Below, piece by piece: positions 4,588 through 46,066 of a stretch of 46,565 nucleotides of DNA. The stretch's first letter is position 1, and each line of letters starts with the position of its first letter. A program made the translations under genes and the position numbers. The stretch lies in contig JBBDQT010000066.1 in assembly GCA_040905815.1 (NCBI GenBank), positions 1 through 46,565 of the forward strand, given 5' to 3'. Below the pieces are notes generated by a model that saw only the letters and a program-made list of their open reading frames with translations, searched no databases and had not been told where the DNA came from. Origin of the DNA: Acidimicrobiales bacterium (lineage in GTDB: Bacteria; Actinomycetota; Acidimicrobiia; Acidimicrobiales; CADCSY01).

Positions 4588-6302
4588 GGGCGATGGTGAT
4601 CGGCAGGGGCAAGGTCACGTTGGCCGGTCGACTGCTGCTGGTGTTCGCCCTCCTCCTGGCGGGCTGCGGCGGCGACGAGACGTCAGCGCCCGACGAGCAG
4701 GCGGAGGAGACGCCGTCCGACGAGCAAGGGGAGGAACAGCCAGCGGATGCGCCGACCTCGGTGGAGCGCGTGCGGCTGGCCGGGCTGCGAGGCTTCGGCT
4801 ACCCGTCACCGTTCGCATGGGTGCGTGGACCAGGCTGGCTCGTCACCGGCTACGTGTTCGACACGCTGCTATGGGAGGACGAGACGGGCGAGCCCATCCC
4901 CTGGCTGGCGCAGGAGTGGGAGGAGTCCGACGACGGCCTCGAGTGGCGCTTCACGCTCCACGAGGACGCGGTGTGGCACGACGGCGAACCGCTCACGGCG
5001 GACGACGTGGTCTTCAGCGCCGAGTACATGACCGAGGGGCCCGGCGCTGACGCCGCCGGCTTCGCCAGCAGAGGTCTCTCGGTCGTCGACGAGGTCGTGG
5101 CCGAGGGACCTCGAGACGTCGTGTTCCGCCTCAGCCGGCCCAGCGCGTCCTTCGAGGAGGAGGTCGCCATGAGCTTCCTCGTCGTGCCCCAACACATCTG
5201 GGCGGACGAGGGGGATCCGGCGAAGCTGCGTGGCCCCGAGGCCACCATGGGTTCGGGCCCGTACCGGCTGGAGTCGGTCGACGAGGCCAACGGCACGTTG
5301 TTGTTCACCGCCAACGAAGACTTCTACCTGGGGGCGCCAGTCGTGAAGCGCGTGGAGTTCGTCCCCGCCGAGGACGAGCTGCTGGCCCTCCAGCGCGGGG
5401 AGCTCGATGCGGCCGAGGTCGCTTCGGAGCAAGCCGTGCCCGAGGCGCTGCTAGACGCCTTGGAGGAGGACCCCAGGGTCGGGCGGGCAGACGCCGAGGG
5501 CAGCTGGAACCGGATGTTGTTCTTCAACCTCGCCCAGGGCTTCCCCTTCGACGACGTGCGCTTCCGTCACGCCGTCGCCTACGGCATCGATCGCGAGGAC
5601 CTGGTGGAGCGCATCATGTTCGGCCGCGCCAAGGTCGGCAGCGCCGGCGGCCTCGCCCCCAACAACCCGTTCCTGGCCGATGGTCTGCCCACCTACGGCC
5701 ACGACCCCGCCCAGGCCCAGGAGCTGCTGGACGACCTCGGCATGGCCGACACCGACGGCGACGGCTTCCGGGAGGTTCACGACGGCACGCCGTTCCGACC
5801 GCAGCTCCTCGACAGCAACCGCTTCTCGGCCAACACCCCGGAGCTGATCAAGGAGTACCTGCGTGAGATCGGCATCGACCTCCAGATCAACATCTTGGAC
5901 CAGGCAGCTGCCGACGAAGCCGCCGCGCAGGGGGACTACGGCATGGCCCTGGTCGGCTTCGGCGGCATCATGGGTGACCCCGACACCCTGCGGACCCGGT
6001 ACGGCAGCGACGCACGTGGCTCCAGCTTCAACAGGGCCCACGGGTACTCCAACCCGACCTTCGACGAGCTGGCACAGCAGCAGCAGGTCACCGTCGATCG
6101 CGACGAGCGCAAGGAGCTCGTCTCCCAGATGCAGGAGATCATCGCCGAGGACCTGCCGACGCTCTCGCTCTACGTGCCCGACGACACGGTCTTCTTCAAC
6201 CGTGAGGTGCTCGAGAACTGGTACTTCACACCGGGCTGCAGCCCTTGTGGCGGCACCCGCAACAAGCACCTGTTCCTCACCGGCGAGAAGATGGGGTACT
6301 GA
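4584..6302 (+). CDS. ABC substrate-binding lipoprotein, family 5 (peptide/nickel)
   Basis: Lipobox LLAGC, PWLA.EW..S.DG.EWRFTL...WHDG.PLTADDV, GSGPY; ATGA overlap at 4584. Confidence 0.92.
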   Translation: MRAMVIGRGKVTLAGRLLLVFALLLAGCGGDETSAPDEQAEETPSDEQGEEQPADAPTSVERVRLAGLRGFGYPSPFAWVRGPGWLVTGYVFDTLLWEDETGEPIPWLAQEWEESDDGLEWRFTLHEDAVWHDGEPLTADDVVFSAEYMTEGPGADAAGFASRGLSVVDEVVAEGPRDVVFRLSRPSASFEEEVAMSFLVVPQHIWADEGDPAKLRGPEATMGSGPYRLESVDEANGTLLFTANEDFYLGAPVVKRVEFVPAEDELLALQRGELDAAEVASEQAVPEALLDALEEDPRVGRADAEGSWNRMLFFNLAQGFPFDDVRFRHAVAYGIDREDLVERIMFGRAKVGSAGGLAPNNPFLADGLPTYGHDPAQAQELLDDLGMADTDGDGFREVHDGTPFRPQLLDSNRFSANTPELIKEYLREIGIDLQINILDQAAADEAAAQGDYGMALVGFGGIMGDPDTLRTRYGSDARGSSFNRAHGYSNPTFDELAQQQQVTVDRDERKELVSQMQEIIAEDLPTLSLYVPDDTVFFNREVLENWYFTPGCSPCGGTRNKHLFLTGEKMGY

Positions 6303-6309
6303 TGCACGT

Positions 6310-7119
6310 GTGAGCGACGCGAAGGAAGGTCTCGTCTCCACCCGCGCCGGACTCGCCCGGGCGATCATCCTCGGAATCTTCGCCGGCTTCCTGTCCGGGC
6401 TCTTCGGCGTGGGTGGGGGGATCCTCATCGTCCCCGTGCTCGTGCTGGCGCTCAAGATGGACCAGCGCCTCGCTCACGGCACATCGCTGGCCGCGGTGCT
6501 GCCCATCGCGTTCTCGGGTCTCGTCGGCTTCGCTGTCGAGGACAGCGTCGACTGGCCCGCCGCCCTCGCCCTCACCGTCGGCGCCATCCTCGGCGCCCTC
6601 ATCGGCACCCACGCCCTGCACGTCCTGCCGGTGAGCGTGCTCGCTCGCGCCTTTGCCGGCGTTCTGCTCATCAGCGCCATCCGGCTGGTCCTCGACCACT
6701 CCTCGGGGACGGGACGGCCGGAGATGGACGTGGTGATGGTCGTCGGCCTGGGTCTCGTCGGCCTCTGCGCCGGCACGCTCGCCGGGCTCCTCGGGGTGGG
6801 TGGAGGGGTCGTGATGGTGCCGGCGATGGTCATCTTCTTCGGCATCCCCGCAGCGGTGGCCAAGGGGACCTCCCTCGGTGTCATCATCCCGACCTCGATC
6901 GTGGCCACGCGACGCAACCTGAAGAACGGCCATGCCGACCTGCAGGTCGCGCTCGCTGTCGGCCTCTCCGGTGTCGTGTCGTCGTACCTGGCGTCGAAGG
7001 TCTCCGTCGGTCTCGATGAGCGGACGTCCAACATCCTCTTCGCGGTCCTGCTCACGGTCGCTGCCGTGCGGCTGTTGCTCAAGGACCGCACTGCGGTCTC
7101 GAGCGAACCGGCGACGTGA
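6310..7119 (+). CDS. TauE/SafE (TSUP) family membrane transporter
   Basis: Two repeats of AG.LSGLFGVGGG...VP and A.GTSL; highly hydrophobic. Confidence 0.88.
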   Translation: MSDAKEGLVSTRAGLARAIILGIFAGFLSGLFGVGGGILIVPVLVLALKMDQRLAHGTSLAAVLPIAFSGLVGFAVEDSVDWPAALALTVGAILGALIGTHALHVLPVSVLARAFAGVLLISAIRLVLDHSSGTGRPEMDVVMVVGLGLVGLCAGTLAGLLGVGGGVVMVPAMVIFFGIPAAVAKGTSLGVIIPTSIVATRRNLKNGHADLQVALAVGLSGVVSSYLASKVSVGLDERTSNILFAVLLTVAAVRLLLKDRTAVSSEPAT

Positions 7120-7222
7120 GCCGGGGCGATCGAGGCGGTCTGTTCAGGCCGCCACACCTCTCGTACGCTGCTGCCTGGACGAGGTCGTCGCGACCTCGAA
7201 CCGACAAGTCAGGGGGCGGCTC

Positions 7223-8059
7223 ATGACGGTGATCCGAGCGGCGTTGGTCCAGGAGACGTGGACCGGCGACAAGGAGTCCATGATCAAGGTCCACGAGGAC
7301 CGGGCCCGGGAGGCCAAGGAGCAGGGAGCGCAGGTCATCTGCTTCCAGGAGCTCTTCTACGGCCCGTACTTCTGCCAGGTCCAGGACGCGGCCTTCTACG
7401 AGTACGCGGAGTCCATCCCCGGGCCGACGACGGAGCGGTTCCAGGATCTCGCCCGCGAGCTCGCCATGGTGATGGTGCTGCCGATGTACGAGCGGGAGCA
7501 GCCGGGTGTGCTCTACAACACCTCGGCGGTCGTCGACGCCGACGGGTCGTACCTCGGCAAGTACCGCAAGCACCACCTCCCTCAGGTCAAGGGGTTCTGG
7601 GAGAAGTTCTACTTCCGCCCCGGGAACCTCGGATACCCCGTCTTCGACACGGCCGTCGGCAAGGTCGGCGTGTACATCTGCTACGACCGTCACTTCCCCG
7701 AGGGCTGGCGTGCGCTCGGTCTCAACGGCGCCGAGATCGTCTTCAACCCGTCCGCGACGCATCGGGGCCTGAGCGCCTACCTCTGGGAGCTCGAGCAGCC
7801 GGCGTCAGCAGTGGCGAACGAGTACTTCATCGGAGCCATCAACCGGGTCGGCATCGAGGAGCTCGGCGAGAACGACTTCTACGGGACGAGCTACTTCGTC
7901 GACCCCGAGGGCAAGTTCGTCGGTGAGACCGGTGACCCCCACGACGCCGAGCTCATCGTCCGCGACCTCGACATGGAGCTGCTCACCGAGGTCCGCAACC
8001 GCTGGCAGTTCTACCGGGACCGCCGGCCCGACTCCTACGACGGCCTCGTCCAGCCGTGA
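7223..8059 (+). CDS. Nitrilase-family carbon-nitrogen hydrolase, probable beta-ureidopropionase
   Basis: FQELF (Glu), YRKHH (Lys), ICYDRHFPE (Cys) triad, FWEKFYF; adjacent to dihydropyrimidinase. Confidence 0.9.
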   Translation: MTVIRAALVQETWTGDKESMIKVHEDRAREAKEQGAQVICFQELFYGPYFCQVQDAAFYEYAESIPGPTTERFQDLARELAMVMVLPMYEREQPGVLYNTSAVVDADGSYLGKYRKHHLPQVKGFWEKFYFRPGNLGYPVFDTAVGKVGVYICYDRHFPEGWRALGLNGAEIVFNPSATHRGLSAYLWELEQPASAVANEYFIGAINRVGIEELGENDFYGTSYFVDPEGKFVGETGDPHDAELIVRDLDMELLTEVRNRWQFYRDRRPDSYDGLVQP

Positions 8060-9348
8060 CGGCGGAGCCGACGCTCGCCGAGCGCCACCGGGCGGTCATG
8101 CCGTCGTGGCTGGCGGTGTACTACCAGGATCCGATCGAGCTCACCCACGGCGAGGGCCGCATGGTGTGGGACGCCGACGGCAACCGCTACCTGGACTTCT
8201 TCGGCGGCATCCTCACGACGATGGTCGGCCACGCCGTGCCCGAGGTCGTCGAGGCGCTCCAGGAGCAGGCGGCGAAGCTGCTCCACACGTCGACGCTTTA
8301 CCTGAGCCGCCCGATGGTCGAGCTCGCCGAGCGGCTGGCGGCGCTCTCGGGGATCCCCGACGCGAAGGTGTTCCTCACGACGTCGGGTACGGAGGCGAAC
8401 GAGGCCGCGCTCCTCGCCGCCACCTCGCACCGCCGCAGCAACCAGGTGCTGGCCCTTCGCAACAGCTACCACGGCCGCTCCTTCGGCACGGTCGCCATCA
8501 CCGCGAACCGGGCGTGGTCACCGACCAGCTTCAGCGGGCTGCAGGTCACCTTCGTGCACGGGGGCTACCGACTCCGCAGCCCGTTCAGACAGCTCGACGA
8601 CGCCGCCTACACCGAGGCGTGCGTGCAGGACCTGCGAGACGTCCTCGACATGTGCACGTCGGGCGACGTCGCCTGCATGATCGCCGAGCCGATCCAAGGC
8701 GTCGGCGGGTTCGCGACGCCCCCCGACGGCTTCTTCGGCGCATTCGCCGAGGTCCTGCAGCAGCACGGCATCCTCTTCATCGCCGACGAGGTCCAGACCG
8801 GCTTCGGCCGCACGGGGGAGCACCTGTGGGGCTACGAGGCCCACGGGTTCGTACCCGACATGATCACGATGGCGAAGGGCATCGGCAACGGCGTGAGCCT
8901 CGGCGCGGTGGTGGGCCGCTCCGAGGTCCTCGACTCGGTGCACGCCAACTCGATCTCGACCTTCGGTGGCAACCCGCTCTCGTGCGCAGGTGCGCTCGCC
9001 ACGCTCGACGTGCTGCAGCGCGACGACCTCCAGGGCAACGCGCTGAAGCGCGGCGCCCAGCTGGCCGAGGGCCTGCGGACGATCGCCGCGCGCCACGATT
9101 GGATCGCCGAGGTCCGCGGCAAGGGCCTGATGCTCGCCGTGGAGGCGTGCACCCCCGGCGGCGTCGATTCGTGGCCCGACGCGGCAGGGCAGCTGATGGA
9201 GGCCACGCGGGCGCGTGGGCTGCTCATCGGCAAGGGCGGTCTCTACGGCAACGTCGTCCGGCTCACGCCGCCCCTGTCGGTGACGGAGGCGGAGGTCGCC
9301 GAGGCGCTCGGGATCCTGGAAGCGGCAGCTGCGGAGGTGCGCACATGA
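8056..9348 (+). CDS. Class III PLP aminotransferase, probable beta-alanine/beta-aminoisobutyrate transaminase
   Basis: SGTEANE, SYHG, EPIQG, IADEVQTGFGRTG, MAKGIGNG, TFGGNP. Confidence 0.88.
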   Translation: MTAEPTLAERHRAVMPSWLAVYYQDPIELTHGEGRMVWDADGNRYLDFFGGILTTMVGHAVPEVVEALQEQAAKLLHTSTLYLSRPMVELAERLAALSGIPDAKVFLTTSGTEANEAALLAATSHRRSNQVLALRNSYHGRSFGTVAITANRAWSPTSFSGLQVTFVHGGYRLRSPFRQLDDAAYTEACVQDLRDVLDMCTSGDVACMIAEPIQGVGGFATPPDGFFGAFAEVLQQHGILFIADEVQTGFGRTGEHLWGYEAHGFVPDMITMAKGIGNGVSLGAVVGRSEVLDSVHANSISTFGGNPLSCAGALATLDVLQRDDLQGNALKRGAQLAEGLRTIAARHDWIAEVRGKGLMLAVEACTPGGVDSWPDAAGQLMEATRARGLLIGKGGLYGNVVRLTPPLSVTEAEVAEALGILEAAAAEVRT

Positions 9349-34777: not shown

Positions 34778-35021
34778 GTGGGCCGCCGGTCCGTCGCCCC
34801 TCCTGCCGCCGCGTGAGCACCCCGCCGACGACGATCTCGTGTGTGTCCATGCGCTGTCCGGTACCCGAGATGATCGACAACGTGTGCGGTCTGCGGTGTG
34901 GCGCCCGACGGCCTCGTGCTGAGCCGGGCCGCGTTCCTCCCCGACACAGAGGTGGTCCCTCTGGTGTCCTGACGTGTCGGCCTCAGGCCTGGCAACGCAG
35001 GCGTGCTCTCGGCGCGGCGTG

Positions 35022-35048
35022 GGAATGGCGTTACCTCCCCCTCGGGTT
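35022..35048 (+). promoter_or_regulatory. SigH/SigR-type ECF promoter (GGAAT-N19-GTT)
   Basis: GGAAT at 35022-26 and GTT at 35046-48, upstream of an Rv2466c-like gene; Rv2466c is a known SigH target in M. tuberculosis. Confidence 0.55.
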
Positions 35049-35089
35049 CCCCCTCACGTCCGGAGACCGACGACCGGAAGGACACGACC

Positions 35090-35755
35090 ATGGCCGAGCG
35101 AGTGCTGTTCTACTTCGATCCGATCTGCCCGTGGTGCTACCAGACCTCTCGCTGGGCGCACCGGCTCGAGGAGCGTGGCGTCATCGAGCTGGAGTGGGGC
35201 GTGTTCTCCCTCGAGCTGCAGAACGCAGGCAAGGAGCCGGAGGAGCTGGCGGCGGCGCACGCCCGGTCGGCGCGTGCGCTCCGCACCGCCATCGCGGTCC
35301 GTGACTCCGCCGGCCACCCGGCTGCCGGTGCCTTCTACAAGGCGATCGGGGAGCGGGTCCACGAGCGGGGCGAGCCGCTCGAAGACCCGGCGACGGTCGA
35401 GGCCGCCCTCGCCGATGCCGGACTCGATCCGTCGCTGTGCGAGAAGGCGTGGGCCGACGAGTCGACTGCCGAGCGGGTGGCGAGCGAGCACCGCGAGCTG
35501 TGTGAGCGGACCCGCAGCTTCGGCGTCCCGACGATCGTGCTCGACGGCGGTGACGGACCGGCCATCTTCGGCCCGGTGATCACCGACGTGCCCGACGACG
35601 ACGACGCCGAGGAGCTGTGGCGCCACGTCTCCTGGCTCATCCGCCACGACAGCTTCGCCGAGCTGAAGCGGGACCGGCTGTCGTCTCCCGACCTCGAGTC
35701 GGTGCGACGGCGGCAGCGGGAGAAGGACGAAGCGGAGGCGTCCGACCGGACGTGA
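35090..35755 (+). CDS. DsbA-fold, Rv2466c-like (mycothiol-dependent reductase family) protein
   Basis: FYFDPICPWC..TSRW, GVPT, FGPVI, F.ELKR. Confidence 0.85.
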   Translation: MAERVLFYFDPICPWCYQTSRWAHRLEERGVIELEWGVFSLELQNAGKEPEELAAAHARSARALRTAIAVRDSAGHPAAGAFYKAIGERVHERGEPLEDPATVEAALADAGLDPSLCEKAWADESTAERVASEHRELCERTRSFGVPTIVLDGGDGPAIFGPVITDVPDDDDAEELWRHVSWLIRHDSFAELKRDRLSSPDLESVRRRQREKDEAEASDRT

Positions 35756-36282: not shown

Positions 36283-37479
36283 CTACCTGCCGCTCTCGCC
36301 ACGCTGGTACGCGTTCTCGTGGCCCTCGTACGTCACGAAGCTCATCAGACCACCGGGTTCCACCGTGTCGTTGCCGACATGGTGGAGGATGTGGCAGTGG
36401 AACATCCAGTCGCCGGGGTCGTCGGCCACGAACTCGATGTCGTAGCGCTCACCTGAGCCCACGAGGACGGTGTCGGCCAGGTAGGGGCTCTCCAGCGGGG
36501 CACCGTCCTTGGCCACCACCAGGAACCGCTTGCCGTGCAGGTGCATGGGATGGGACTGGTAGCCGGCGTTCATGATCCGGATGAGGACGCGGTCGCCCTC
36601 GTCCACGACCATGTTCTCCGTCGCCGGGAACGACTTGCCGTTGATGGTGAACCAGTTGTACTCGGCCTGGTTGTGCCCGGCGTGGGCGACGCCCTCCCAG
36701 CCGTTGCGGCCGTCGGGGAGGCGGATCCACTCGTCGACCATCTGGATGAACTGCTTGTCGTATGCGGGGTCGTCCTTGCCCTCGATCACCATCGCACCCG
36801 AGAGTCCCATGTCCAGCTGGCGGGCCGAGTCGAAGTGGGAGTGGTACCAGAAGCTCCCGGACGGCTCGGCGGTGAACTCGTAGGTGAAGGTCTCCCCGGG
36901 TTCGATCGGGTCCTGGCTCACGCCCGGGACGCCGTCCATCTCGTTGGGCACGGCGACTCCGTGCCAGTGGATGGTGGTGGGGACGGGGAGCTCGTTGACG
37001 AGGTTGATGCGGAGGCGGTCGCCCTGGTCCACCCAGATCTCGGGGCCGGGCACCTGGCCGTCGTAGCCCCAGGCCGTCACCGTCTTGCCCGGGATGATCT
37101 CCCATTGCACCACTTCGGCGGTGAGGGTGAGCTCCTTCACACCGTCGACGACCTCGGGCTTGGCACGGACCGTGCGCTCGTCGCGCACCTGCGTGGTCGC
37201 CAGGTCGGTCTGCGCCGGGACCTCCACCTGGTCTGCCCCGTGGGCGTCGCCTTCTTCCCCATCGTGTTCTTCCCCGCCGGCTCGGGTGGATGTCGTGACC
37301 CCCGTGGGCGCTGCCCCACCGTCGTCGTCCTCGTCGCCGTCAGCGAGGAGCGCGACGGCCACGACGGCCACCGTCGCGACGGCGGCGAGCACGGCTGCGA
37401 AGCCGAGGTTGGAGAACCGTGGCCTCGGCGCCGGCGGCGGGGTCGGCTCGGTGCCGTCCTGGCGGGGTTGAGCGCTCAT
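36283..37479 (-). CDS. Two-domain multicopper oxidase with N-terminal membrane anchor
   Basis: HWHG, WYHSH, HPMHLHG, HCHILHH...GGLM copper motifs in only 398 aa. Confidence 0.9.
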   Translation of the reverse strand: MSAQPRQDGTEPTPPPAPRPRFSNLGFAAVLAAVATVAVVAVALLADGDEDDDGGAAPTGVTTSTRAGGEEHDGEEGDAHGADQVEVPAQTDLATTQVRDERTVRAKPEVVDGVKELTLTAEVVQWEIIPGKTVTAWGYDGQVPGPEIWVDQGDRLRINLVNELPVPTTIHWHGVAVPNEMDGVPGVSQDPIEPGETFTYEFTAEPSGSFWYHSHFDSARQLDMGLSGAMVIEGKDDPAYDKQFIQMVDEWIRLPDGRNGWEGVAHAGHNQAEYNWFTINGKSFPATENMVVDEGDRVLIRIMNAGYQSHPMHLHGKRFLVVAKDGAPLESPYLADTVLVGSGERYDIEFVADDPGDWMFHCHILHHVGNDTVEPGGLMSFVTYEGHENAYQRGESGR

Positions 37480-37923
37480 CGTCGTCCTCGAGTCGGCGTT
37501 CAGCTGATGTCCGGCCGCAAGCGTGAGGATGCCCTCTGGTGGGCTCGCGCCCTCGAGCGCGCTCGACTGCGGCGGTGGATCTGCGGCAAAGGGAGGGTAG
37601 CGGAGAACGCTCCCCGCATCGCCGCCAGCGCCCCGGCGAGCACGGTTGACGCTCGCCGCACCTGCGAAGAGACTTCGTGTGCGGCGGTGAAAGGTGGGAC
37701 TCGTCGGTTGTGGCGGTCAGGGTGGTCGACCGACCGAGCGTGCTGCCGACAGCGGCGCGGTCGGGACGTCCGGTGGCCGACTGGTGCGGGCAGCGTTGGG
37801 TGCAGCCGTGGCTCTTGCCCTCGGGTGCCCCAGCCAGGGCGACGGCCCGCGTGGGTCTCGGGCCGGGCGCGGCTAACGTGCGTGGGGGGCCTTTCGGCCC
37901 AAAAGGTCCGAGCAGGAGAGCTG

Positions 37924-39318
37924 GTGCAGGTGGAGACGCAGACGCGCAGCTGTGAGATGCACGGCGAAGGCACTCGCCTGTCGTGCGTCGACTGCGGGGA
38001 GCCGATCTGCCCAAGGTGCATGAACCGGACCGAGGTCGGCCTGAAGTGCAGGGCTTGCGCCGCGCCCACCGTCGTGCCTGGAGCGCTCCCGAGGTCCACG
38101 CGCCGACTCGCCCTGGTCGGCGCCGCGCTCGGCGCGGTGGTGCTGGTCGCCGCCGTGGTGCTCCTGCGCCAGCCGTCCTCGTCGCAGGACCCCGATGCTG
38201 AGGTCGTGGCACCGGTCGGGACGTGGGCCGACGCGCCCGATCTGTCGGCCATCCGGGGGACGGCCAGCGCCGTCGTCCTCGACGACGGCGCCGTGCTCGT
38301 CGCAGGTGGAGGTGTGGGCGCCCTCGCCGTCGCCGCCACCGAGATCCTGGAACCGGACGCGGACGCCTGGCAGGACGTGGGGGCGCTCGCCGAGGCTCGC
38401 CGGGGTCACCAGGCGGTGCTGCTGGACGACGGACGGGTGCTCGTGGCCGGAGGGCTCTCAGCGGGGACGCCGCTGGCATCGGCCGAGGTGTACGACCCAG
38501 GCACCCGCTCGTGGTCCCCGGTGGGGCCGATGACGGCGGCCCGCCTCGGCCACTCACTCACCGTGTTGAACAACGGGAAGGTCCTGGCCGCAGGCGGCAG
38601 CACGCTCGAGGGGGCGGAGTCGGCTGGGGGGGGACAGACGATCCGCTCGGCCGCGTCGGCGGAGCTGTTCGACCCGGAGACGGGGACGTGGACGGCGACC
38701 GGGACGATGGCGTCGGCCCGCTTCGAGCACACCGCCACGCGCCTGCGCGACGGGAGGGTCGTCCTGGCGGGCGGGCTGGGCCCGGTGGGCGGCGACGGCG
38801 GGACCGGACCGCTGTCCTCGACGGAGATCTATGATCCCGCCGCCGGTGCGTTCGTCAGCTCGACCGATCTGGGCGAGGCCCGCGCCAACCACGCGGCGGT
38901 GCTGCTGGGTGACGACTCGGTGCTCGTGACCGGCGGCGCCGGGGGAAACGCTGGCGACCTCTCGCTGGCGAGCGCCGAGGTGTTCGACGTCCGGGCCGGC
39001 ACGTGGAGCACGGTCGCGCCGATGGGGGCCACCCGCACCGGGCACACCGCCACGCGCCTCGACGACGGCCGGGTGCTCGTCATCGGCGGCGAGTCCGTCC
39101 AGCGCGGCACGAGGAGCTCGCTCACGAGCGCCGAGCTGTTCGACTTCGATGCCGGCGCGACCGGCCGCTGGGGTCCGGCGGGCGACATGGCGTGCCCCCG
39201 CAGCGAGCACGCCTCGGTCCTCCTCGGGGAGGGCAGCGTGCTGGTCGTGGCCGGCGACGCCGCCTTCCCCGGGCAGGCGCCGATCGCCCAGAGCTGCACC
39301 GAACGCTACGAACCATGA
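37924..39318 (+). CDS. B-box-like zinc finger + TM + 7-repeat Kelch beta-propeller protein
   Basis: CEMH-x7-CVDC-x4-CPRC-x9-CRAC, one TM, seven R..H.A..L.DG.VL..GG repeats; AGGAG RBS before GTG 37924/37930. Confidence 0.85.
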   Translation: MQVETQTRSCEMHGEGTRLSCVDCGEPICPRCMNRTEVGLKCRACAAPTVVPGALPRSTRRLALVGAALGAVVLVAAVVLLRQPSSSQDPDAEVVAPVGTWADAPDLSAIRGTASAVVLDDGAVLVAGGGVGALAVAATEILEPDADAWQDVGALAEARRGHQAVLLDDGRVLVAGGLSAGTPLASAEVYDPGTRSWSPVGPMTAARLGHSLTVLNNGKVLAAGGSTLEGAESAGGGQTIRSAASAELFDPETGTWTATGTMASARFEHTATRLRDGRVVLAGGLGPVGGDGGTGPLSSTEIYDPAAGAFVSSTDLGEARANHAAVLLGDDSVLVTGGAGGNAGDLSLASAEVFDVRAGTWSTVAPMGATRTGHTATRLDDGRVLVIGGESVQRGTRSSLTSAELFDFDAGATGRWGPAGDMACPRSEHASVLLGEGSVLVVAGDAAFPGQAPIAQSCTERYEP

Positions 39319-39337
39319 CACGAGTGAGGGAGATCAC

Positions 39338-41260
39338 ATGAGCACGCCAGGAAGCACCCGTCGTCGGCGGGGCAAGGACGGCGCGGAGCCCGACGGCGCT
39401 GGAGCCGAGGACAACCAGCCCGACAACCGCAAGCGGGCACTGGTCCTCTGCCTGCTCGCCCTCCCCCTGCTGGTGGTGTTCTACGGCCTGATCCTGTACT
39501 GGTCGAACCCCCGCACCCCGGGCGAGGAGCTGCGCATCGACGAGTTCACCACGCTGATGCGCCAGGGGCGGATCCAAGAGACCGAGATCCTCGAGACCGA
39601 CAACCGGATGATCGGCACGTACGACGGCGGGCAGTTCTGGGTCGCGTACTCGGGTGCCAACGAGACGATCTTCGCCCGGCTCACCAGCGCGCTTGAGGAC
39701 GCCGGCGTGCCGTACTCCGTCAAGCAGCAGCCGCTCAAGAACCTCGTCATGCCGGTGAGCCTCCTGTTGCCGGCACTGATCATCATCGACGGCCTGTTCA
39801 TCTTGTTCCTCGCCTTCGGGCGGGGCAGCGACGGCTTCACCGCCTTCGGCCGTTCACGCGGGAAGCGCCTCGAGACCGCCGACGCCAAGATCACCTTCTC
39901 CGACGTCGCCGGTGTCGACGAGGCCATCGAGGAGCTGGTCGAGATCCGCGACTACCTCGCGAGCCCGGACCGCTTCCTCGCCATGGGTGCTTCTGTCCCC
40001 AAGGGCATCCTGCTCACCGGTCCGCCCGGGTGCGGCAAGACGCTGCTCGCGCGAGGCCTCGCCGGTGAGTCGGAGGTCCCGTTCTTCTCGATCTCCGGGT
40101 CGGACTTCGTCGAGATCTTCGTGGGCGTCGGTGCGGCCCGCATCCGGGACTTCTTCAAGGTGGCCAAGGCGGCGGCGCCGTGCATCGTCTTCATCGACGA
40201 GCTCGACGCCGTGGGCCGCGGGCGCAGCACGCACTCCATGGGAGGCACCGACGAGCGGGAGGCCACCTTGAACCAGCTCCTCGTCGAGATGGACGGCTTC
40301 GAATCGGGGAGCGGCGTCGTGGTCCTCGCGGCGACGAACCGGCCCGACATCCTCGACTCCGCCCTCCTCCGACCCGGGCGGTTCGACCGGCGCGTCGCGG
40401 TGGAGCGTCCCGACGTGAACGGCCGCGAGGGGATCCTCGGCATCCACACCCGGGGCAAGCCGCTCGCCGACACCGTCGACATGGCCGAGGTCGCCAAGCG
40501 GACCGCTGGCTTCTCCGGGGCCGACCTCGCCAACGTCGTCAACGAGGCCGCCCTCCTCGCCGCCCGTCGGGGCGCGAGCATCATCGAGCAGTCTCACTTC
40601 ACCGAGGCGATTGAGCGGTTGGTGGCGGGCCCGGAGCGCAAGTCCCGCATCCTGTCGCCGCAGGACCGGCACCGCATCGCCTACCACGAGGCCGGCCACG
40701 CCGTGGTCGCCACCGCCCTCCCCGGCACGGACCGTGTCGGCAAGCTCTCGATCGTGGCCCGTGGGCACGGCGGCGGGTTCACGTGGTGGGTCGCGGAGGG
40801 CGACCAGACCTCGATCACACGCGCGCAGCTGCTCGACCGCATCGCCGCCCTCCTCGGAGGGCGTGCCGCGGAGGAGCTCGTCACCGGGGACCTCTCGACC
40901 GGCGCCGTCGGCGATCTCGACTCGGCTGTGCTCCTCGCTCGCCGCATGGTCACCGAGTTCGGCATGGGTGACCGGCTCGGCGCGTTCTCGGCCCGGTCGC
41001 TGCAGAACGCGTCGATGAAGGACGGCATGATGGGCCAGGCGTTCTCCGAGCGCGTCGCGTCCGAGATCGATGCGGAGATCCAGAAGGTGCTCGCCGACGC
41101 CGGCGAGCGCGCCCGATCGGTCCTCGTCGACCAGCGCCCCGTGCTCGAGGCGGTGGCGAAGGCGCTGATGGAGACCGAGACGCTCGAAGGTGAGATCCTC
41201 GACGCCCTCTTGCTCCCGGTGGGAGGGGCCGAACCCGCCACGGCGAGAGCGAGCAGCTGA
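39338..41260 (+). CDS. ftsH: ATP-dependent zinc metalloprotease FtsH (probably a paralog)
   Basis: Two TMs, [18 protein letters not shown] pore loop, [30 protein letters not shown]. Confidence 0.92.
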
Positions 41261-41262
41261 CG

Positions 41263-42531
41263 ATGTCGACTCCCACCGCCGAGGACGTCCGCAAGGTCTG
41301 CGGCCGCCACGGCCGCAAGCCGGCGGTGGCGACGTGCGCGAGCTGTGGGGCAGCGATCTGCCGGGCGTGCCTGGTGCCGACCAGCGTCGGCATGAAGTGC
41401 ACGTCGTGCACCGGGCACCGGGGGCCCCCGCGGGACACCGGAAGGCGATCTCCGAACAAGCTCGTGGTCGCCGGGGCGGCAGCGGTGCTCGTGCTCGCCG
41501 CCGGCGCCGTGCTCGCCAGTACGCTCGGGGGCGGGGACGGAGCCGACGGTGCAGACGCGGCGGGCACGGCCCCGATCGTCGACAGTGGGCCCGCTGACCG
41601 CCAGGTGCAGATCGACGGGGCCGGCGACGTGAAGCTGTCCGCCACGCTGTCGTTGCCCGAGCGCGCCGCGCCCGGGTCCGATCTGGCCGCCGTGGTCATC
41701 CTCGGGGGGTTCGGTCCGACGGACCGTGACGGGCGGGCCGCCGACGGGGGAGTCCCCGACAACCTCTACCGGGAGCTGAGCGACGAGCTCGTCGAGGCGG
41801 GCCTGGTGAGCCTCCGCTACGACAAGCGGGGCACGGGCCGCAGCGTGCTGCCCGCCGGCGAAGCGCTCCGCTTCGACGACATGGTCACCGACGCGGGGGT
41901 CGCGGTGGCGTTCCTGGCCGACCGCGCCGAGGTCGACCCGGAACGCATCGCGGTCGTCGGCCACGAGGAGGGCGGCCTCGTCGCCATGCAGCTGGCCGCT
42001 GCTGAGCCCAGGGTCGGTGGGCTGGCGCTGATCTCCACGCCCGGCCGGCCCCTGCTCGAGGTGCTCGCCGACGACTTCATCCTCTCGGAGCACCAGGCGG
42101 ACGTCGAGGGGCTCCGCGCCGTGGTGGGCAGCCTCCTCGCTGACGGCGAGCTGCCAGAGGACATCCCCCCGTCGCTGGCGGGGTACTTCCCGATCGACAA
42201 CGAGGAGTACCTCCTGGACATCTTCTCCGTCGACCCGGTGGCCCTGGCTCGGGACGTCCACGTCCCGGTCCTCCTCGTCAGGGGTGACGAGGCGACGCTG
42301 GTCACCGCCGAGGACGAAGCCGCCCTCGTCAGTGCGCTGGGCATGGCGCCGGAGGTCCTCGTGGTCCCCGACGCCGGTCCGACCCTGGCCATCGAGCACG
42401 AGGAGGGCACCTCGGGGACCATGCCCGATGCGAGCGATGAGCACAGCCCGGCCGTCGGGACGACCACGGAGCGCGCCACGGTCGCCTTCACCCGGATCGC
42501 GGCGTTCCTGGTGGCCGTCACCGAATCCTGA
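41263..42531 (+). CDS. B-box-like zinc finger + TM + alpha/beta-hydrolase-fold domain lacking the catalytic residues
   Basis: CGRH-x8-CASC-x4-CRAC-x9-CTSC; GFGPTDRDG, LRYDKRG.G.S, but GHEEGG in place of GHSEGG. Confidence 0.82.
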   Translation: MSTPTAEDVRKVCGRHGRKPAVATCASCGAAICRACLVPTSVGMKCTSCTGHRGPPRDTGRRSPNKLVVAGAAAVLVLAAGAVLASTLGGGDGADGADAAGTAPIVDSGPADRQVQIDGAGDVKLSATLSLPERAAPGSDLAAVVILGGFGPTDRDGRAADGGVPDNLYRELSDELVEAGLVSLRYDKRGTGRSVLPAGEALRFDDMVTDAGVAVAFLADRAEVDPERIAVVGHEEGGLVAMQLAAAEPRVGGLALISTPGRPLLEVLADDFILSEHQADVEGLRAVVGSLLADGELPEDIPPSLAGYFPIDNEEYLLDIFSVDPVALARDVHVPVLLVRGDEATLVTAEDEAALVSALGMAPEVLVVPDAGPTLAIEHEEGTSGTMPDASDEHSPAVGTTTERATVAFTRIAAFLVAVTES

Positions 42532-42543
42532 CACCCACCGCCG

Positions 42544-43404
42544 TCACGACCCCAGCAGCGGCGGCACCTCGACGCAACCGGCCTCGGCGCCGAGGAGACG
42601 GAGCCCGGCGAGGTCACCGACCCCGAACGCTGCAGTGGGCGCGGTGTGCTCGGCGAGCTCGGGGTACATGAGCTGGGCGGGGCTGCCGGCGTGGCCGAGC
42701 CCGACGACGTGGCCGAGCTCGTGCAGCATGACCCGCCCCCGTGTGATCCCGGGACCGAAGCCCCCCGGCAGGGGCGCGCCGGTGCTGCGATCGATCACCG
42801 CATCGGCGTTGAGCTCGAGCACGCCGCTGACGAGCACCTCGCCGACCCGCAGCGGTCGACCGCGGCCCACCACGATGATGTCGTCACCCGACCCCTCGGT
42901 GCGCTGGGGGATGCCGAGGGCCGACCAGCCGACGAGGATCGGCGCCCACCGCCTGCCGTACCGCTCGGGCTGGTAGGGCTCGCGCCGGACGCCGAGCGGT
43001 TCGTCGGTGGTGCCCTCCTCCACGAACGTGATGCCGGTCGCCGACGCCAGCTCGTCGAAGGCCGCCCGTACGTCGTCGACCCCGCCTGGCGGCGCCAGGG
43101 TGTCGTTCAGCACGAACGGCACCGGCTCGCAGGGGTTGAACCGGGCCGGGAAGCAGTCGTCGCCGCCCGTCGCGAACAGGAACGTGTAGCCCGACGCGGG
43201 CCGCTGCGCCCGCTCTCCGTGGGCGCTGCTGCCGATCCGGCCCTCGGCCGGGCAGGTCTCCCGATCGATCGCCGGATCCTCTCGGTGTGGCCCCTGGTCC
43301 GGCGCGAGCACCGTGGCCCGGAGCCCGACGAGGGCCAGCGCCAGCCCGGCGACCAGCGCCAGCCCCTTGACCGGCGTGACGGCCCGTCGCGCCGGGGGCG
43401 TCAC
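42544..43404 (-). CDS. Matrixin/M10-like zinc metalloprotease, exported
   Basis: HELGHVVGLGH zinc motif, LMYP Met-turn, GD.AGL..LG; N-terminal hydrophobic segment. Confidence 0.85.
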   Translation of the reverse strand: MTPPARRAVTPVKGLALVAGLALALVGLRATVLAPDQGPHREDPAIDRETCPAEGRIGSSAHGERAQRPASGYTFLFATGGDDCFPARFNPCEPVPFVLNDTLAPPGGVDDVRAAFDELASATGITFVEEGTTDEPLGVRREPYQPERYGRRWAPILVGWSALGIPQRTEGSGDDIIVVGRGRPLRVGEVLVSGVLELNADAVIDRSTGAPLPGGFGPGITRGRVMLHELGHVVGLGHAGSPAQLMYPELAEHTAPTAAFGVGDLAGLRLLGAEAGCVEVPPLLGS

Positions 43405-43483
43405 GGCACCGGCACGGTCCGGCTCACGACCCTATCGTACCGTGGAGGGCCCAGGAGCGACTCCCAGCACGGCGACCCGAGCC

Positions 43484-43510
43484 GGGAGGGGGTCCCCACA
43501 ACCCCCTCCC
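43484..43510 (-). terminator. Perfect 10-bp stem-loop downstream of the BNR protein gene
   Basis: GGGAGGGGGT / ACCCCCTCCC with a 7-nt loop, 33 nt past the stop at 43544. Confidence 0.5.
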
Positions 43511-43543
43511 GTGCCGTCCCGGACCGGCGTGCCCCGGAGCGCC

Positions 43544-45280
43544 TCAGGTCGCGGCCAGAGCCTGGCGGCGCATGTCGCGTCGACGCACCAGCAGGGCGAG
43601 CAAGACGAACAGCAGGCCGACGGCGACGAGGCCGATGACCCCGGCGAGCAGGTACTGCGCGGTGCTCGACGTCGCGGCGGGCAGCTCCTCGAACTGGACA
43701 GCAGCGGTGTAGATGTCCTGTCCGTGGGTCACGTCGTCGAAGTTGCGGGTGTCGTCCCAGCCGACGAGTGCGAAGGCGTCGGTCGATGCGATGCCGGGCG
43801 GGCCGTTCAGGTCGAACTGCAAGGCGAACACCCCGACGCGGCGGTCGATCGATCGGTCGGTGACCCGGATGTTCTCCGACCAGCTCGCGCCGTTGTCGGT
43901 GGAGTAGGCGTAGTACACGTCGTTGGTGTTGAGACCGGGATCAGACCGGGTGTCGAACCAGGCGACGTCGAGGCGTCCGTTCGGCGCGACGCTGATCTTC
44001 GGGATGCCGCTGAAGTACAGCTGGGCGGGATCGTCGTCGTTGACGACGACCGCCTCGCTCCAGGTCTCGCCCCGGTCGGTCGACTGGCGGTAGAAGACAT
44101 CCCGCTCGCTGGACACGTTCGGTGTGCGGGACGCCTCGTAGGCGACGTGCAAGGTGCCGTCGGTGCCGCCCTCGGGGCTCCACACCATCTCGATGCCGCC
44201 GAAGCCGTTCACGTTCTCCGGCTCGAACGGGGAGATCTGGAACGTCTCGATGGTCTCACCGTGGTCCGACGTCCGGGTGAGCATGTGCGCCGGTGAGGGG
44301 CGCTTGTCACTGTCGAAGTTCTGCACGGTCGTCACCCATGCGACGTACGCTGTGCCGGCATCGTCGACGGCGACCACCGGGTTCGTGCCGCCGAAGTTGA
44401 CCTGCTGGTCCGGATCCGATGCCGGGCTCCCCGGCGGTGCGGTCGTGGTGGTGGTGGGGGGCTTCTCCGCCTCGGTCGTGGTGGTCGTGTCCGGGTCGGC
44501 GGTGGTCGTCGTCGTCTCGGGCGGGGCAGCGGTCGTGGTGGTGGCGGCGATGACCTCGGCACGTGCTTCGGGCTCGGCGAAGTGCTCGCCCACCAGGTTG
44601 ATCGGTTCGGAGAACGTGACGCCCCCGTCGGTGGAGACGGCCATCATCGGCAGGTTGGGAAGCTGGTTCGGCGCGGTGAACCGGTGCTGCTGGCGCCAGG
44701 TGACGTAGACGACGTCCTCGTCGCCGCTCGTGTCCACAGCGAAGCCGGAGAGCGGGCGGTTCGGCTGCTGCTCCTCGTCCTCGAGGCCCCGGGCCTCGCG
44801 CACGACCGTCGTCTGCCACGACTCACCCATGTCGTCGGAGCGACCCACCATGATGCTGCGGTTCGCCCCGTCGGTGGTGTCCCAGCCGCCGAGGGCGTAG
44901 TAGAGGCGATCATCGGATCCGAACGCGAGCTTGCCCTGGGTCGTGTGGCTGTTGGTCATCAGGCAGAGCGGGAAGGCGTCGGTCGACGGGGAGGAGTCGA
45001 GGGACGCCCAGCTCTGGCCGCCGTCGGTGGTCTCCATCGTCCCGCAGCTCTGGGTCCGCAGGTCGACGGCGGCGGCGAGGATGTGCAACGGGTCTCCGGG
45101 GTCGACGGCGAAGCCGGGGACGCCGTAGGTCCTCCCCGGCGACACGTCGAACTCGGTGGCGTTCACCGGCTCCGTCACCCGCTCCGTGGACTGCGCCGAC
45201 ACCTGGAGCGTGGTCAGCGTGACCGCCAGCAGCAGCACGCATGCTGCGACGGCGGCCTTCTTCATCGTGTGCGTCTTCAT
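43544..45280 (-). CDS. Sialidase-fold (BNR/Asp-box) beta-propeller surface protein with signal peptide and C-terminal membrane anchor
   Basis: Asp-boxes TTDGGQSW, SDDMGESW, STDGGVTF, SDHGET, STDRGETW, STDNGASW; C-terminal TM followed by RRR. Confidence 0.82.
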   Translation of the reverse strand: MKTHTMKKAAVAACVLLLAVTLTTLQVSAQSTERVTEPVNATEFDVSPGRTYGVPGFAVDPGDPLHILAAAVDLRTQSCGTMETTDGGQSWASLDSSPSTDAFPLCLMTNSHTTQGKLAFGSDDRLYYALGGWDTTDGANRSIMVGRSDDMGESWQTTVVREARGLEDEEQQPNRPLSGFAVDTSGDEDVVYVTWRQQHRFTAPNQLPNLPMMAVSTDGGVTFSEPINLVGEHFAEPEARAEVIAATTTTAAPPETTTTTADPDTTTTTEAEKPPTTTTTAPPGSPASDPDQQVNFGGTNPVVAVDDAGTAYVAWVTTVQNFDSDKRPSPAHMLTRTSDHGETIETFQISPFEPENVNGFGGIEMVWSPEGGTDGTLHVAYEASRTPNVSSERDVFYRQSTDRGETWSEAVVVNDDDPAQLYFSGIPKISVAPNGRLDVAWFDTRSDPGLNTNDVYYAYSTDNGASWSENIRVTDRSIDRRVGVFALQFDLNGPPGIASTDAFALVGWDDTRNFDDVTHGQDIYTAAVQFEELPAATSSTAQYLLAGVIGLVAVGLLFVLLALLVRRRDMRRQALAAT

Positions 45281-45289
45281 CGTGTGCGT
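45260..45289. repeat. Perfect 15-bp tandem duplication (CTTCATCGTGTGCGT x2)
   Basis: Read directly at 45260-74 and 45275-89; each copy contains a minus-strand ATG. Confidence 0.85.
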
Positions 45290-45472
45290 GTTCCCCCCAA
45301 GAGATGTCGCGGTGACCCTGTTGGATCGTCGCGTTCGTGCCGAACCGTGCAGTACCGGCCAGGTGCCGGATGCCGCCGCCCGTTCGCAGCGGTGGCATCC
45401 GGGCTCGCCGGGACAACCGTCGTGGCAGGGTTCTCGCCGAGCCGCCGCTCCACGACCCTGTCGTGTGGTCAG

Positions 45473-46066
45473 CTACACGTCGACCGTCGCCGCCTTGGGC
45501 TCGGGACGCTTGCGCGTGGTCAGGAACGCACCTGCTCCGGCCACGAACAGTGCCACCCCGGCGACGCCGAGGCCGGCGAGCACGAGCGAGCCGGTGCTCG
45601 CCGACCCGGCGGAGGCGAGCCCGGCGGGGCGGTCCGCACCCTGCGCCTCCAGGGGTGCGCCGAGCAGCGGCGCACCGCCCGCTCCGTGCACGCTGACGAG
45701 GGCGCGGGCCGGGATCATCCTGTACTCCCCGTCAGCCGACTCCTGGGTGCCGATGAGGACGTAGTTGCCGGGCTCGGTGCCCGCAGGGATCTCGACGGAG
45801 CCGGCGAGCCGGCGACTGTCGGGGTCGGGCATGAACTCGCCGAGCACCGGACCGTCGAGGGCGTTGAAGCGGATCACCACCGGCAGGTCTGGGTTCCACG
45901 TGATGCCGCTGATCTGAACCTCCTCACCGGCGGCGACGCCTTGCGGCTCGGATACGAGGGACGGCCCCGCGACGCAAGCCCACGCTGCTGCCGTCAACAG
46001 CACCACCCCTGTCGCGACCAAGGCGACGAGTGTTGCTGCCTTGTTCCTGTTTCGCTTCCTGCTCAT
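45473..46066 (-). CDS. Hypothetical exported protein with signal peptide and C-terminal TM anchor
   Basis: Signal peptide ending AAAWA-C, beta-rich core (IP.GT.PG.YV), C-terminal TM plus RKR; GGGAGGG RBS. Confidence 0.75.
   Translation of the reverse strand: MSRKRNRNKAATLVALVATGVVLLTAAAWACVAGPSLVSEPQGVAAGEEVQISGITWNPDLPVVIRFNALDGPVLGEFMPDPDSRRLAGSVEIPAGTEPGNYVLIGTQESADGEYRMIPARALVSVHGAGGAPLLGAPLEAQGADRPAGLASAGSASTGSLVLAGLGVAGVALFVAGAGAFLTTRKRPEPKAATVDV

Follow-up and report, generated by a model that had tools for sequence, protein, structure and literature searches.

Introduction

How FtsH chooses its membrane substrates is still an open question, and to our knowledge few of its adaptors have been described, namely HflKC, YqgP and a few more. 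In proteobacteria, HflK and HflC are two paralogous type-II single-pass proteins with large extracytoplasmic domains that modulate the access of FtsH to membrane substrates; they are SPFH/band-7 proteins, carry no zinc fingers and are not encoded around ftsH. In Bacillus subtilis, the rhomboid YqgP (GluP) has been reported to bind FtsH and to act as a substrate adaptor, a role for which its Mn/Zn-binding cytosolic N-terminal domain is needed (passages of PMC7231995). Here we describe a gene trio in a contig of an Acidimicrobiales bacterium (GenBank assembly GCA_040905815.1, contig JBBDQT010000066.1, 46,565 nucleotides, all of which we call the window), where an FtsH paralog is encoded between two single-pass membrane proteins that both begin with a finger of the B-box type.

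Prokaryotic B-box proteins were treated by Burroughs, Iyer and Aravind in 2011 (Mol Biosyst; cited in PMC4506424 and PMC5481349), and, according to a passage of the citing paper PMC4506424, that work linked the prokaryotic domains to how membrane proteins fold, stay stable and are proteolysed. For mycobacterial rhomboids, a B-box zinc finger is one of the additional domains tabulated in PMC2989971. Accessory FtsH paralogs are reported in the abstracts of work on Pseudomonas aeruginosa clone C (FtsH2; PMC10850787) and on cyanobacterial and chloroplast families (PMC9020784, PMC11287208), and a statement in PMC9020784 gives most bacteria one FtsH. We searched the full-text literature for work on bacteria that brings B-box, FtsH and Kelch together and found none, nor did any paper join Acidimicrobiia with FtsH and its paralogs; of 41 papers with most of these subjects, the 12 listed all deal with eukaryotes, plants or Plasmodium. 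The 2011 paper lay outside the search, and a prior description is possible. FtsH with membrane partners (HflKC, YqgP), bacterial B-boxes and fusions of B-box and rhomboid are known, and a description of the present cluster was not found in the literature searched.

Results

A conserved gene trio around an FtsH paralog

The trio occupies positions 37924-42531 on the plus strand of the window and comprises genes for a finger-Kelch protein (fKelch), the FtsH paralog and a finger-hydrolase protein (fHyd). The source assembly is a metagenome-assembled genome (MAG) of 2.2 Mb in 246 contigs, 76% complete. An earlier reading of the bare sequence (the sequence-only reading) had described three tightly linked genes, and its gaps of 19 nt between fKelch and FtsH and of 2 nt between FtsH and fHyd hold, with the fKelch stop codon TGA at 39316-39318 and the FtsH start codon ATG at 39338. 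The genes that it had placed stand as well, apart from the start of fKelch. This it had set at 37924, and the true start is more likely the GTG at 37930, which has a ribosome-binding site (AGGAGA, 37914-37919) 10 nt upstream and gives an N-terminus resembling the MVTQT of orthologues.

We searched 40 related genomes for fHyd and found orthologues (49-54% identity) in seven, which belong to other genera of the same GTDB family. In all seven the order was finger-Kelch, FtsH, finger-hydrolase, with the trio cut by contig ends in two. One of these genomes (G006) is unpublished, and the conclusion is independent of it. Scanning a collection of species representatives with an alignment of fHyd orthologues returned 29 loci that matched at full length, from the finger onward, and 51 that matched the hydrolase domain only. 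The 29 full-length loci all come from MAGs, and eight of them are contigs already covered by the other searches; their titles name mostly Acidimicrobiales, Acidimicrobiia or Actinomycetota and, in two cases, Mycobacteriales or Propionibacteriales. FtsH lay directly upstream of fHyd in 19 of the 21 loci that could be assessed, and fKelch directly upstream of FtsH in 11 of 12 (two genes away in L083).

The bias of starting from fHyd is avoided by a search with FtsH itself at E≤1e-200, a threshold that no FtsH outside the cluster clade passed. Of 401 genomes sampled from the order, 14, in five families, had a clade-type FtsH, and at 15 places inspected in published genomes finger genes were part of the cluster at ten. 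A sample of 401 genomes from the phylum added two genomes outside the order with a clade-type FtsH, one of which (G598) carries the full trio with BNR and fam4 genes, described below, around it. Taken together, the order fKelch-FtsH-fHyd with minimal gaps extends across at least six GTDB families. The co-localisation of finger genes with this FtsH, which the sequence-only reading had put forward for checking, is thus conserved across genomes; the link between finger and FtsH is strong and spans several families, and it is patchy and not obligatory.

The trio can also be followed in independent samples. In soil and groundwater runs from other studies, contigs with about 95% identity span both gene junctions: the fKelch-FtsH junction is bridged by soil-run contigs of another study, one of them 1656 nt long with 82 differences, and the FtsH-fHyd junction by contigs of three runs. 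Contigs from a metatranscriptome library cover parts of each of the three genes (92-99% identity) and bridge no junction. These are a weak hint that the trio is expressed, with DNA carry-over into the RNA library possible. Separately, we observed one MAG that carries the whole cluster twice, at L057 and at L059, which lie on different contigs; at L059 the FtsH is split into two overlapping open reading frames (ORFs; 6655-8986), which points to a frameshift or sequencing error.

The cluster FtsH forms a clade of its own

The middle gene had been read as an intact FtsH, and this is borne out by a TIGR01241 match well above cut-off (699.3 bits; 699.4 in the whole-genome search) and by the presence of all catalytic motifs, including GPPGCGKT (Walker A), HEAGH and GRAAEE. 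Across 16 orthologues, the Walker A and B motifs, the pore-loop FVG, the second region of homology with its Arg fingers and HEAGH are invariant. Judged by these motifs, the cluster FtsH is a catalytically intact protease. Its transmembrane (TM) helices, at residues 36-54 and about 145-163, flank an FtsH_ext domain (26.0 bits against a cut-off of 25.5). Mean pairwise identity was 82% in the AAA domain, 66% in the outer domain, 65% in the protease domain, 64% and 69% in the first and second TM helix, and 34% in the N-terminal tail. The good conservation of the outer domain leaves room for contacts outside the membrane too.

A separate housekeeping ftsH, for which the sequence-only reading had asked the genome to be checked, is present on contig C186, where tilS (2419-2904), hpt (3301-3789), ftsH (3927-5666) and folE (5906-6442) follow one another on one strand. 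We take it to be the housekeeping copy because of this gene order; it is also the best-scoring FtsH-like gene of the genome. The MAG contains at least six FtsH-like genes (contigs C186, C48, C18, C167, C155 and C180, besides the window), and related genomes have 3-7 FtsH-like matches each. We built a maximum-likelihood tree from 35 FtsH sequences, which came from this genome, the cluster loci and five other genomes. In it, the 18 cluster sequences form one clade (support 100 in the Shimodaira-Hasegawa-like approximate likelihood-ratio test, SH-aLRT), apart from the housekeeping clade. A second conserved FtsH paralog clade, separate from the cluster clade, is found across families (L141, L143, L144, L145, L147), and several other FtsH paralogs of the genome sit on long branches, where their placement is unsure. 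Among the other FtsH-like genes, contig C48 carries a tandem pair in which one matched ORF has no HExxH, and on contig C167 (16408-19671) an 890-aa FtsH-like ORF appears on both strands with identical scores, which may be a hairpin-like palindrome made in assembly or an inverted duplication.

The shared finger appears to be a B-box-type domain

A pattern scan recovered, at exactly the positions first reported (37951-38058 and 41299-41409), the two finger motifs that the sequence-only reading had picked out in fKelch (finger A) and fHyd (finger C). Scanning the 2.2-Mb genome in six frames, we found the pattern at three places only: finger A, finger C and the N-terminal end of a rhomboid protease (298 aa, contig C36). 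Each finger of the trio is roughly 45 residues long. The eight Cys/His ligands have the spacing of two cross-braced zinc sites and are invariant in 13 aligned finger sequences; the last ligand is H or D in some relatives. A 44-column profile built from 13 fingers gave E-values of 1e-17 to 1e-20 for the three fingers of the genome, and the Pfam zf-B_box model (PF00643) scored 21.3 bits for finger A and 23.8 bits for finger C, both just under its cut-off of 24.1. Within two whole-protein AlphaFold2 (AF2) models the fingers have a predicted local distance difference test (pLDDT) score of 72-90.

Searched against 1.84 billion representative proteins, the profile matched 2252 at E≤0.001. We scanned for domains the 61 matches of at least 200 aa among the 150 matches listed: 52 of these 61 match Pfam zf-B_box at E≤0.001 (best 35.5 bits), 27 are rhomboids, five carry alpha/beta-hydrolase families and two carry Kelch repeats. 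A search of PDB sequences with the profile placed the B-boxes of TRIM54, MID1 (two), TRIM63 and TIF1-beta in the top five, as weak matches (best E 0.0037). These sequence comparisons point to a bacterial domain of the B-box type that, among the matches scanned, is carried most often by rhomboid proteases. That this type of finger heads actinobacterial rhomboids had been given as known in the sequence-only reading, and the 27 rhomboids, the genome's own copy and the table in PMC2989971 agree with it.

In fKelch, mean pairwise identity was 69% in the finger, 60% in the Kelch domain, 37% in the TM helix and 34% in the linker; in fHyd it was 54% in the finger, 51% in the hydrolase fold and 25% in the TM helix. 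Residues of finger A other than the ligands (TRLTC, RTEVGLKC) are highly conserved. The finger is thus the most constrained part of fKelch, non-ligand residues included, which fits a conserved cytoplasmic partner.

Other finger arrangements were seen in passing. The top match of the profile, P0005 (314 aa, E 6e-32), holds three finger copies in one protein, in which we found no Pfam domain besides the finger, and several other matches have two copies each. Further architectures within the same taxonomic order stand away from FtsH at L043 (5883-7031, minus) and L041 (7983-9413, plus): one is a finger-TM-PD40 (TolB-like) propeller, the other a finger-TM with a second type of Kelch propeller. The fingers of L041, L043 and L040 have C-x2-H or C-x2-D in place of the final C-x2-C pair.

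Both finger proteins are predicted to face outward with different domains

As the sequence-only reading had described, each finger is followed by one TM helix and a different outer domain, a seven-repeat Kelch domain in fKelch and a dead alpha/beta hydrolase in fHyd. The topology that it had wanted predicted also came out as expected: Lys and Arg residues (K/R) number 3 and 5 before the TM helix and 1 and 0 after it (fKelch and fHyd, respectively), and the fingers are therefore predicted to be cytoplasmic and the C-terminal domains to lie outside. Both would be type-II membrane proteins, N-in/C-out.

Seven copies of the Kelch repeat core (R-x-x-H-x3-L-x-D-G-x-V-L-x-x-G-G, with variants) are recognisable in the fKelch translation, which matches Kelch_4 (146 bits), Kelch_6 (115 bits) and Kelch_1 (110 bits). 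The AF2 model has a pLDDT of 83.4, mostly above 90 in the Kelch domain, and its nearest solved folds in Foldseek are the Kelch domains of KLHL17, KLHL20, KLHL12 and KEAP1 together with designed Kelch proteins (E 1e-20 to 1e-23). In the model, the fKelch ectodomain looks like the Kelch domains of peptide-binding substrate receptors. Among 15 aligned orthologues a Cys pair (C424, C458) is invariant in this domain, which fits an extracytoplasmic location.

The fHyd model (pLDDT 82.3) matched alpha/beta hydrolases, feruloyl esterases and lipases in Foldseek (top match 7qjm, E 2.4e-20). Its nucleophile elbow reads GHEEG, with Ser replaced by Glu, and among 16 orthologues the nucleophile residue is E in ten, D in four and G in two, and never Ser. 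The catalytic His is kept in four of the 16 and the GxxD acid in three; the fHyd of the window has E for Ser, no GxxD and P for His. We therefore rejected an active esterase, given the 0/16 count for the Ser nucleophile. Nearly all members of the family are, from these residues, pseudo-enzymes. One relative (L042) retains the residues D-D-H and could be active.

The trio belongs to a larger unit

The conserved unit exceeds the trio to which the sequence-only reading had confined itself: genes for a BNR propeller, an IPT/TIG-like protein and a matrixin-like protease recur with it and are found at 42544-46066 in the window (Table 1). Among 17 clustered loci, the BNR family (fam2) is present in 12, often in several copies, and fam4 in ten; homologues of the matrixin-like protease (fam7) lie beside the trio in four, and at further loci. 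The fam2 protein of the window has TM helices at residues 9-27 and 547-565. Pfam and NCBIfam searches returned nothing for fam4; the Atlas cluster closest to it bears the automatic name 'putative IPT/TIG domain-containing protein' (score 0.97), which we treat as no more than a lead. The tail of fam4 reads RQxRR..VP in nine of ten members examined.

Table 1. Features of the trio and its surroundings, in window positions
Feature	Positions	Strand	Evidence or description
Intergenic region, presumed promoter region of the trio	37480..37923	.	444 nt between multicopper-oxidase gene (36283-37479, minus) and fKelch gene; ORF and third-codon-position G+C (GC3) data
fKelch (finger, one TM, seven-bladed Kelch)	37924..39318, likely start 37930	+	Translation; Kelch_4 146 bits; zf-B_box 21.3 bits
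Finger A (in fKelch)	37951..38058	+	C-x2-H-x7-C-x2-C-x4-C-x2-C-x9-C-x2-C; pattern match and profile E 2.5e-19
fKelch TM helix (residues 62-80)	38107..38163	+	Hydropathy 2.85; K/R 3 before, 1 after
Kelch propeller, seven repeats	38218..39315	+	Translation, Pfam, AF2 model, fold search
FtsH paralog, 640 aa	39338..41260	+	TIGR01241 699 bits against cut-off 600; Peptidase_M41, AAA, FtsH_ext
fHyd (finger, one TM, alpha/beta-hydrolase fold)	41263..42531	+	Hydrolase_4 51.8 bits against cut-off 27; zf-B_box 23.8 bits
Finger C (in fHyd)	41299..41409	+	C-x2-H-x8-C-x2-C-x4-C-x2-C-x9-C-x2-C; pattern match and profile E 1.2e-17
fHyd TM helix (residues 67-85)	41461..41517	+	Hydropathy 2.62; K/R 5 before, 0 after
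Matrixin-like zinc metalloprotease (fam7)	42544..43404	-	Peptidase_M10 27.5 bits; HELGHVVGLGH; N-terminal TM
BNR-repeat propeller (fam2)	43544..45280	-	Pfam BNR_2, BNR; signal peptide, C-terminal TM, basic tail
Protein of about 200 aa (fam4)	45473..46066	-	Signal peptide, small beta domain, Gly-rich C-terminal TM, basic cytoplasmic tail

The contig ends beyond the fam4 gene. In other loci, a 4-TM protein of about 140 aa (no family) recurs a few genes from the trio, and two or three MinD/ParA/CbiA-type ATPases recur near it (L028, 9999-11785; L031, 2249-3070 and 3826-4254; L044, the region of 119-1683). These ATPases score 20-29 bits with Get3/ArsA-type models, far under the cut-offs. At the window locus the part with the ATPases and the 4-TM protein would lie past the contig end. 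Domain scans of the neighbours revealed no sigma factor or regulator in the cluster that would be an obvious output. We also considered a role in anti-phage defence and rejected it: among six cluster proteins run through PADLOC, only the AAA domain of FtsH matches models (IetA and TRIP13), and the other five have no match.

The trio is bordered by a divergent multicopper-oxidase gene upstream (Cu-oxidase_3, Cu-oxidase_2) and by convergent minus-strand genes from 42544 on. Further upstream, the plus-strand gene at 35003-35755 encodes an Rv2466c-like, DsbA-fold mycothiol-dependent reductase. The adjacency of oxidase and reductase to the trio is not kept in other genomes. A scan of 37300-43600 for a sigma-70 consensus and an intrinsic terminator found none, which is uninformative at such G+C content; elsewhere in the window, G+C is 0.64-0.67 at 14-22 kb and 0.69-0.73 in the remainder.

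Discussion

Our best reading is that the trio forms the core of an accessory envelope module, conserved in Acidimicrobiales-like actinobacteria and organized around a dedicated FtsH. As to how the module works, we hold it quite possible, and propose tentatively, that the finger proteins are receptor or adaptor subunits of the cluster FtsH and that the co-clustered surface proteins are its clients. The Kelch and pseudo-hydrolase ectodomains would bind partners or ligands at the outer face of the membrane, and the finger, on the FtsH side, would couple this outside recognition to the protease; fKelch and fHyd would in this way serve as substrate-selecting or regulatory subunits. Likely clients would be type-I surface proteins, namely the BNR propellers and the IPT/TIG-like protein, whose Gly-rich TM helix and basic tail would face FtsH. 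The proposal draws on the likeness to YqgP, whose cytosolic N-terminal domain supports an FtsH-adaptor role in Bacillus. The sequence-only reading had pointed to such cooperation between rhomboid and FtsH, and passages of PMC7231995 indeed describe the YqgP domain as required.

Several observations weigh against an adaptor role. We did not find the module in the two same-genus genomes searched (90% and 83% complete), so the trait is patchy and its role is not essential. Two of the 21 assessable fHyd genes have no FtsH upstream (L080, L081), five of the 15 inspected clade FtsH genes have no nearby finger gene (two keep FtsH-fam4-BNR and three stand alone), and finger-TM-propeller proteins occur away from any FtsH (L041, L043, L045). 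All members come from MAGs of uncultured carriers and are known from sequence alone. Contact between any of the trio proteins is something that we infer, as are the adaptor or substrate roles and the physiological signal of the module, and zinc binding by the fingers is deduced from a ligand pattern whose scores fall under the Pfam cut-off. A complex prediction of finger A (residues 1-55) with full-length monomeric FtsH gave no answer (scores of 0.01 and 0.00) and counts neither way.

The same proteins could be read as conditional FtsH substrates, with the zinc finger as a stability switch, which we find doubtful though not far-fetched. FtsH is a weak unfoldase, a premise that we take from general background; a zinc-loaded, folded finger would resist it, and loss of zinc or oxidation of the thiols would unfold the finger, start degradation and remove the receptor from the surface. 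The finger does sit at the extreme N-terminus and is predicted to be cytoplasmic, the place from which FtsH begins to degrade membrane substrates; its eight Cys/His ligands are conserved, and an identity of only 25-37% in the TM helices is expected where specific helix packing is not needed. The N-terminal domain of YqgP, moreover, is described as a Mn/Zn sensor (passages of PMC7231995). However, turnover of the finger proteins is purely hypothetical, the conserved non-ligand residues of finger A suggest a binding surface beyond what fold stability would ask for, and the cluster holds no obvious output for such a switch. Alternatively, the Kelch, BNR, IPT/TIG-like, pseudo-hydrolase and matrixin-like proteins might make up a cell-surface assembly in which the fingers only oligomerize, joining fKelch and fHyd to one another or to the rhomboid that carries a finger, and FtsH is a co-regulated, generic quality-control protease. 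B-boxes are oligomerization modules in TRIM proteins, and the best PDB sequence matches of the finger are TRIM and MID1 B-boxes; in addition, envelope proteins recur in the neighbourhood, two differing fingers are kept side by side in most loci, and FtsH-fam4-BNR units exist without fingers. We nevertheless judge this assembly unlikely, for the order with minimal gaps recurs in at least six families and a separate FtsH clade is kept for the cluster, which is hard to explain if the housekeeping FtsH could do generic quality control.

That the adjacency is fortuitous or an artefact of MAG assembly is extremely improbable. The window does come from an incomplete assembly in 246 contigs, and the palindromic FtsH-like duplicate on C167 resembles an assembly problem, but the same order is found in many independent assemblies and contigs of other studies bridge both junctions. 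The adaptor reading can also be extended, to a form that we consider quite improbable as a whole: the B-box finger would be a portable cytoplasmic module of Actinobacteria that couples rhomboids, Kelch, PD40 and other propellers and pseudo-hydrolases to degradation by FtsH, and in the cluster two interchangeable receptors would direct the dedicated FtsH to BNR and IPT/TIG-like proteins with Gly-rich TM helices and a conserved RQxRR..VP tail, perhaps after cleavage by the finger-rhomboid. This would amount to a ubiquitin-free, receptor-based selection of substrates across the membrane.

The cluster offers a compact natural case in which a dedicated FtsH clade is combined with two partners that share only a small, predicted cytoplasmic zinc finger, and the same finger stands, unexplained, at the N-terminus of many actinobacterial rhomboids. 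Should the finger be the coupling element, this would give bacterial B-boxes a function, account for the rhomboid fusion and make specific FtsH adaptors predictable from sequence.

Compared with described systems, the trio is closest in part to YqgP: its finger also heads rhomboids of this genome and of many actinobacteria. Unlike YqgP, however, neither partner here is a rhomboid: each spans the membrane once and has a Kelch or a pseudo-hydrolase ectodomain. Their N-terminal domain is a B-box-type finger, whereas that of YqgP is described in passages of PMC7231995 as resembling no known structure. Furthermore, the trio's FtsH is a dedicated paralog encoded between both partners, and its interaction with them would be presumed by analogy. 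As in HflK/HflC, there are two type-II single-pass partners with large extracytoplasmic domains; those of HflK/HflC are unrelated in sequence and fold to the Kelch and alpha/beta-hydrolase domains of the trio. The fingers appear to belong to the same group as those of the prokaryotic B-box proteins. With the accessory FtsH paralogs of other bacteria the cluster FtsH shares the position of a second, specialized FtsH beside the housekeeping one, with a narrower role; as far as their abstracts show, those paralogs are described without flanking zinc-finger membrane partners. The FtsH-like genes of this MAG, at least six, are an unusual number for actinobacteria with small genomes when set against the one FtsH that a statement in PMC9020784 gives to most bacteria. 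Finally, there is a likeness to eukaryotic degradation receptors: the nearest folds of the Kelch domain are those of KLHL proteins and KEAP1, the peptide-binding receptors of Cullin-3 ligases, and the nearest relatives of the finger are TRIM and MID1 B-boxes. In contrast to those receptors, the trio has no ubiquitin system, its two domains lie on predicted opposite sides of the membrane, and the degrading machine would be FtsH; the resemblance is one of parts, not of pathway.

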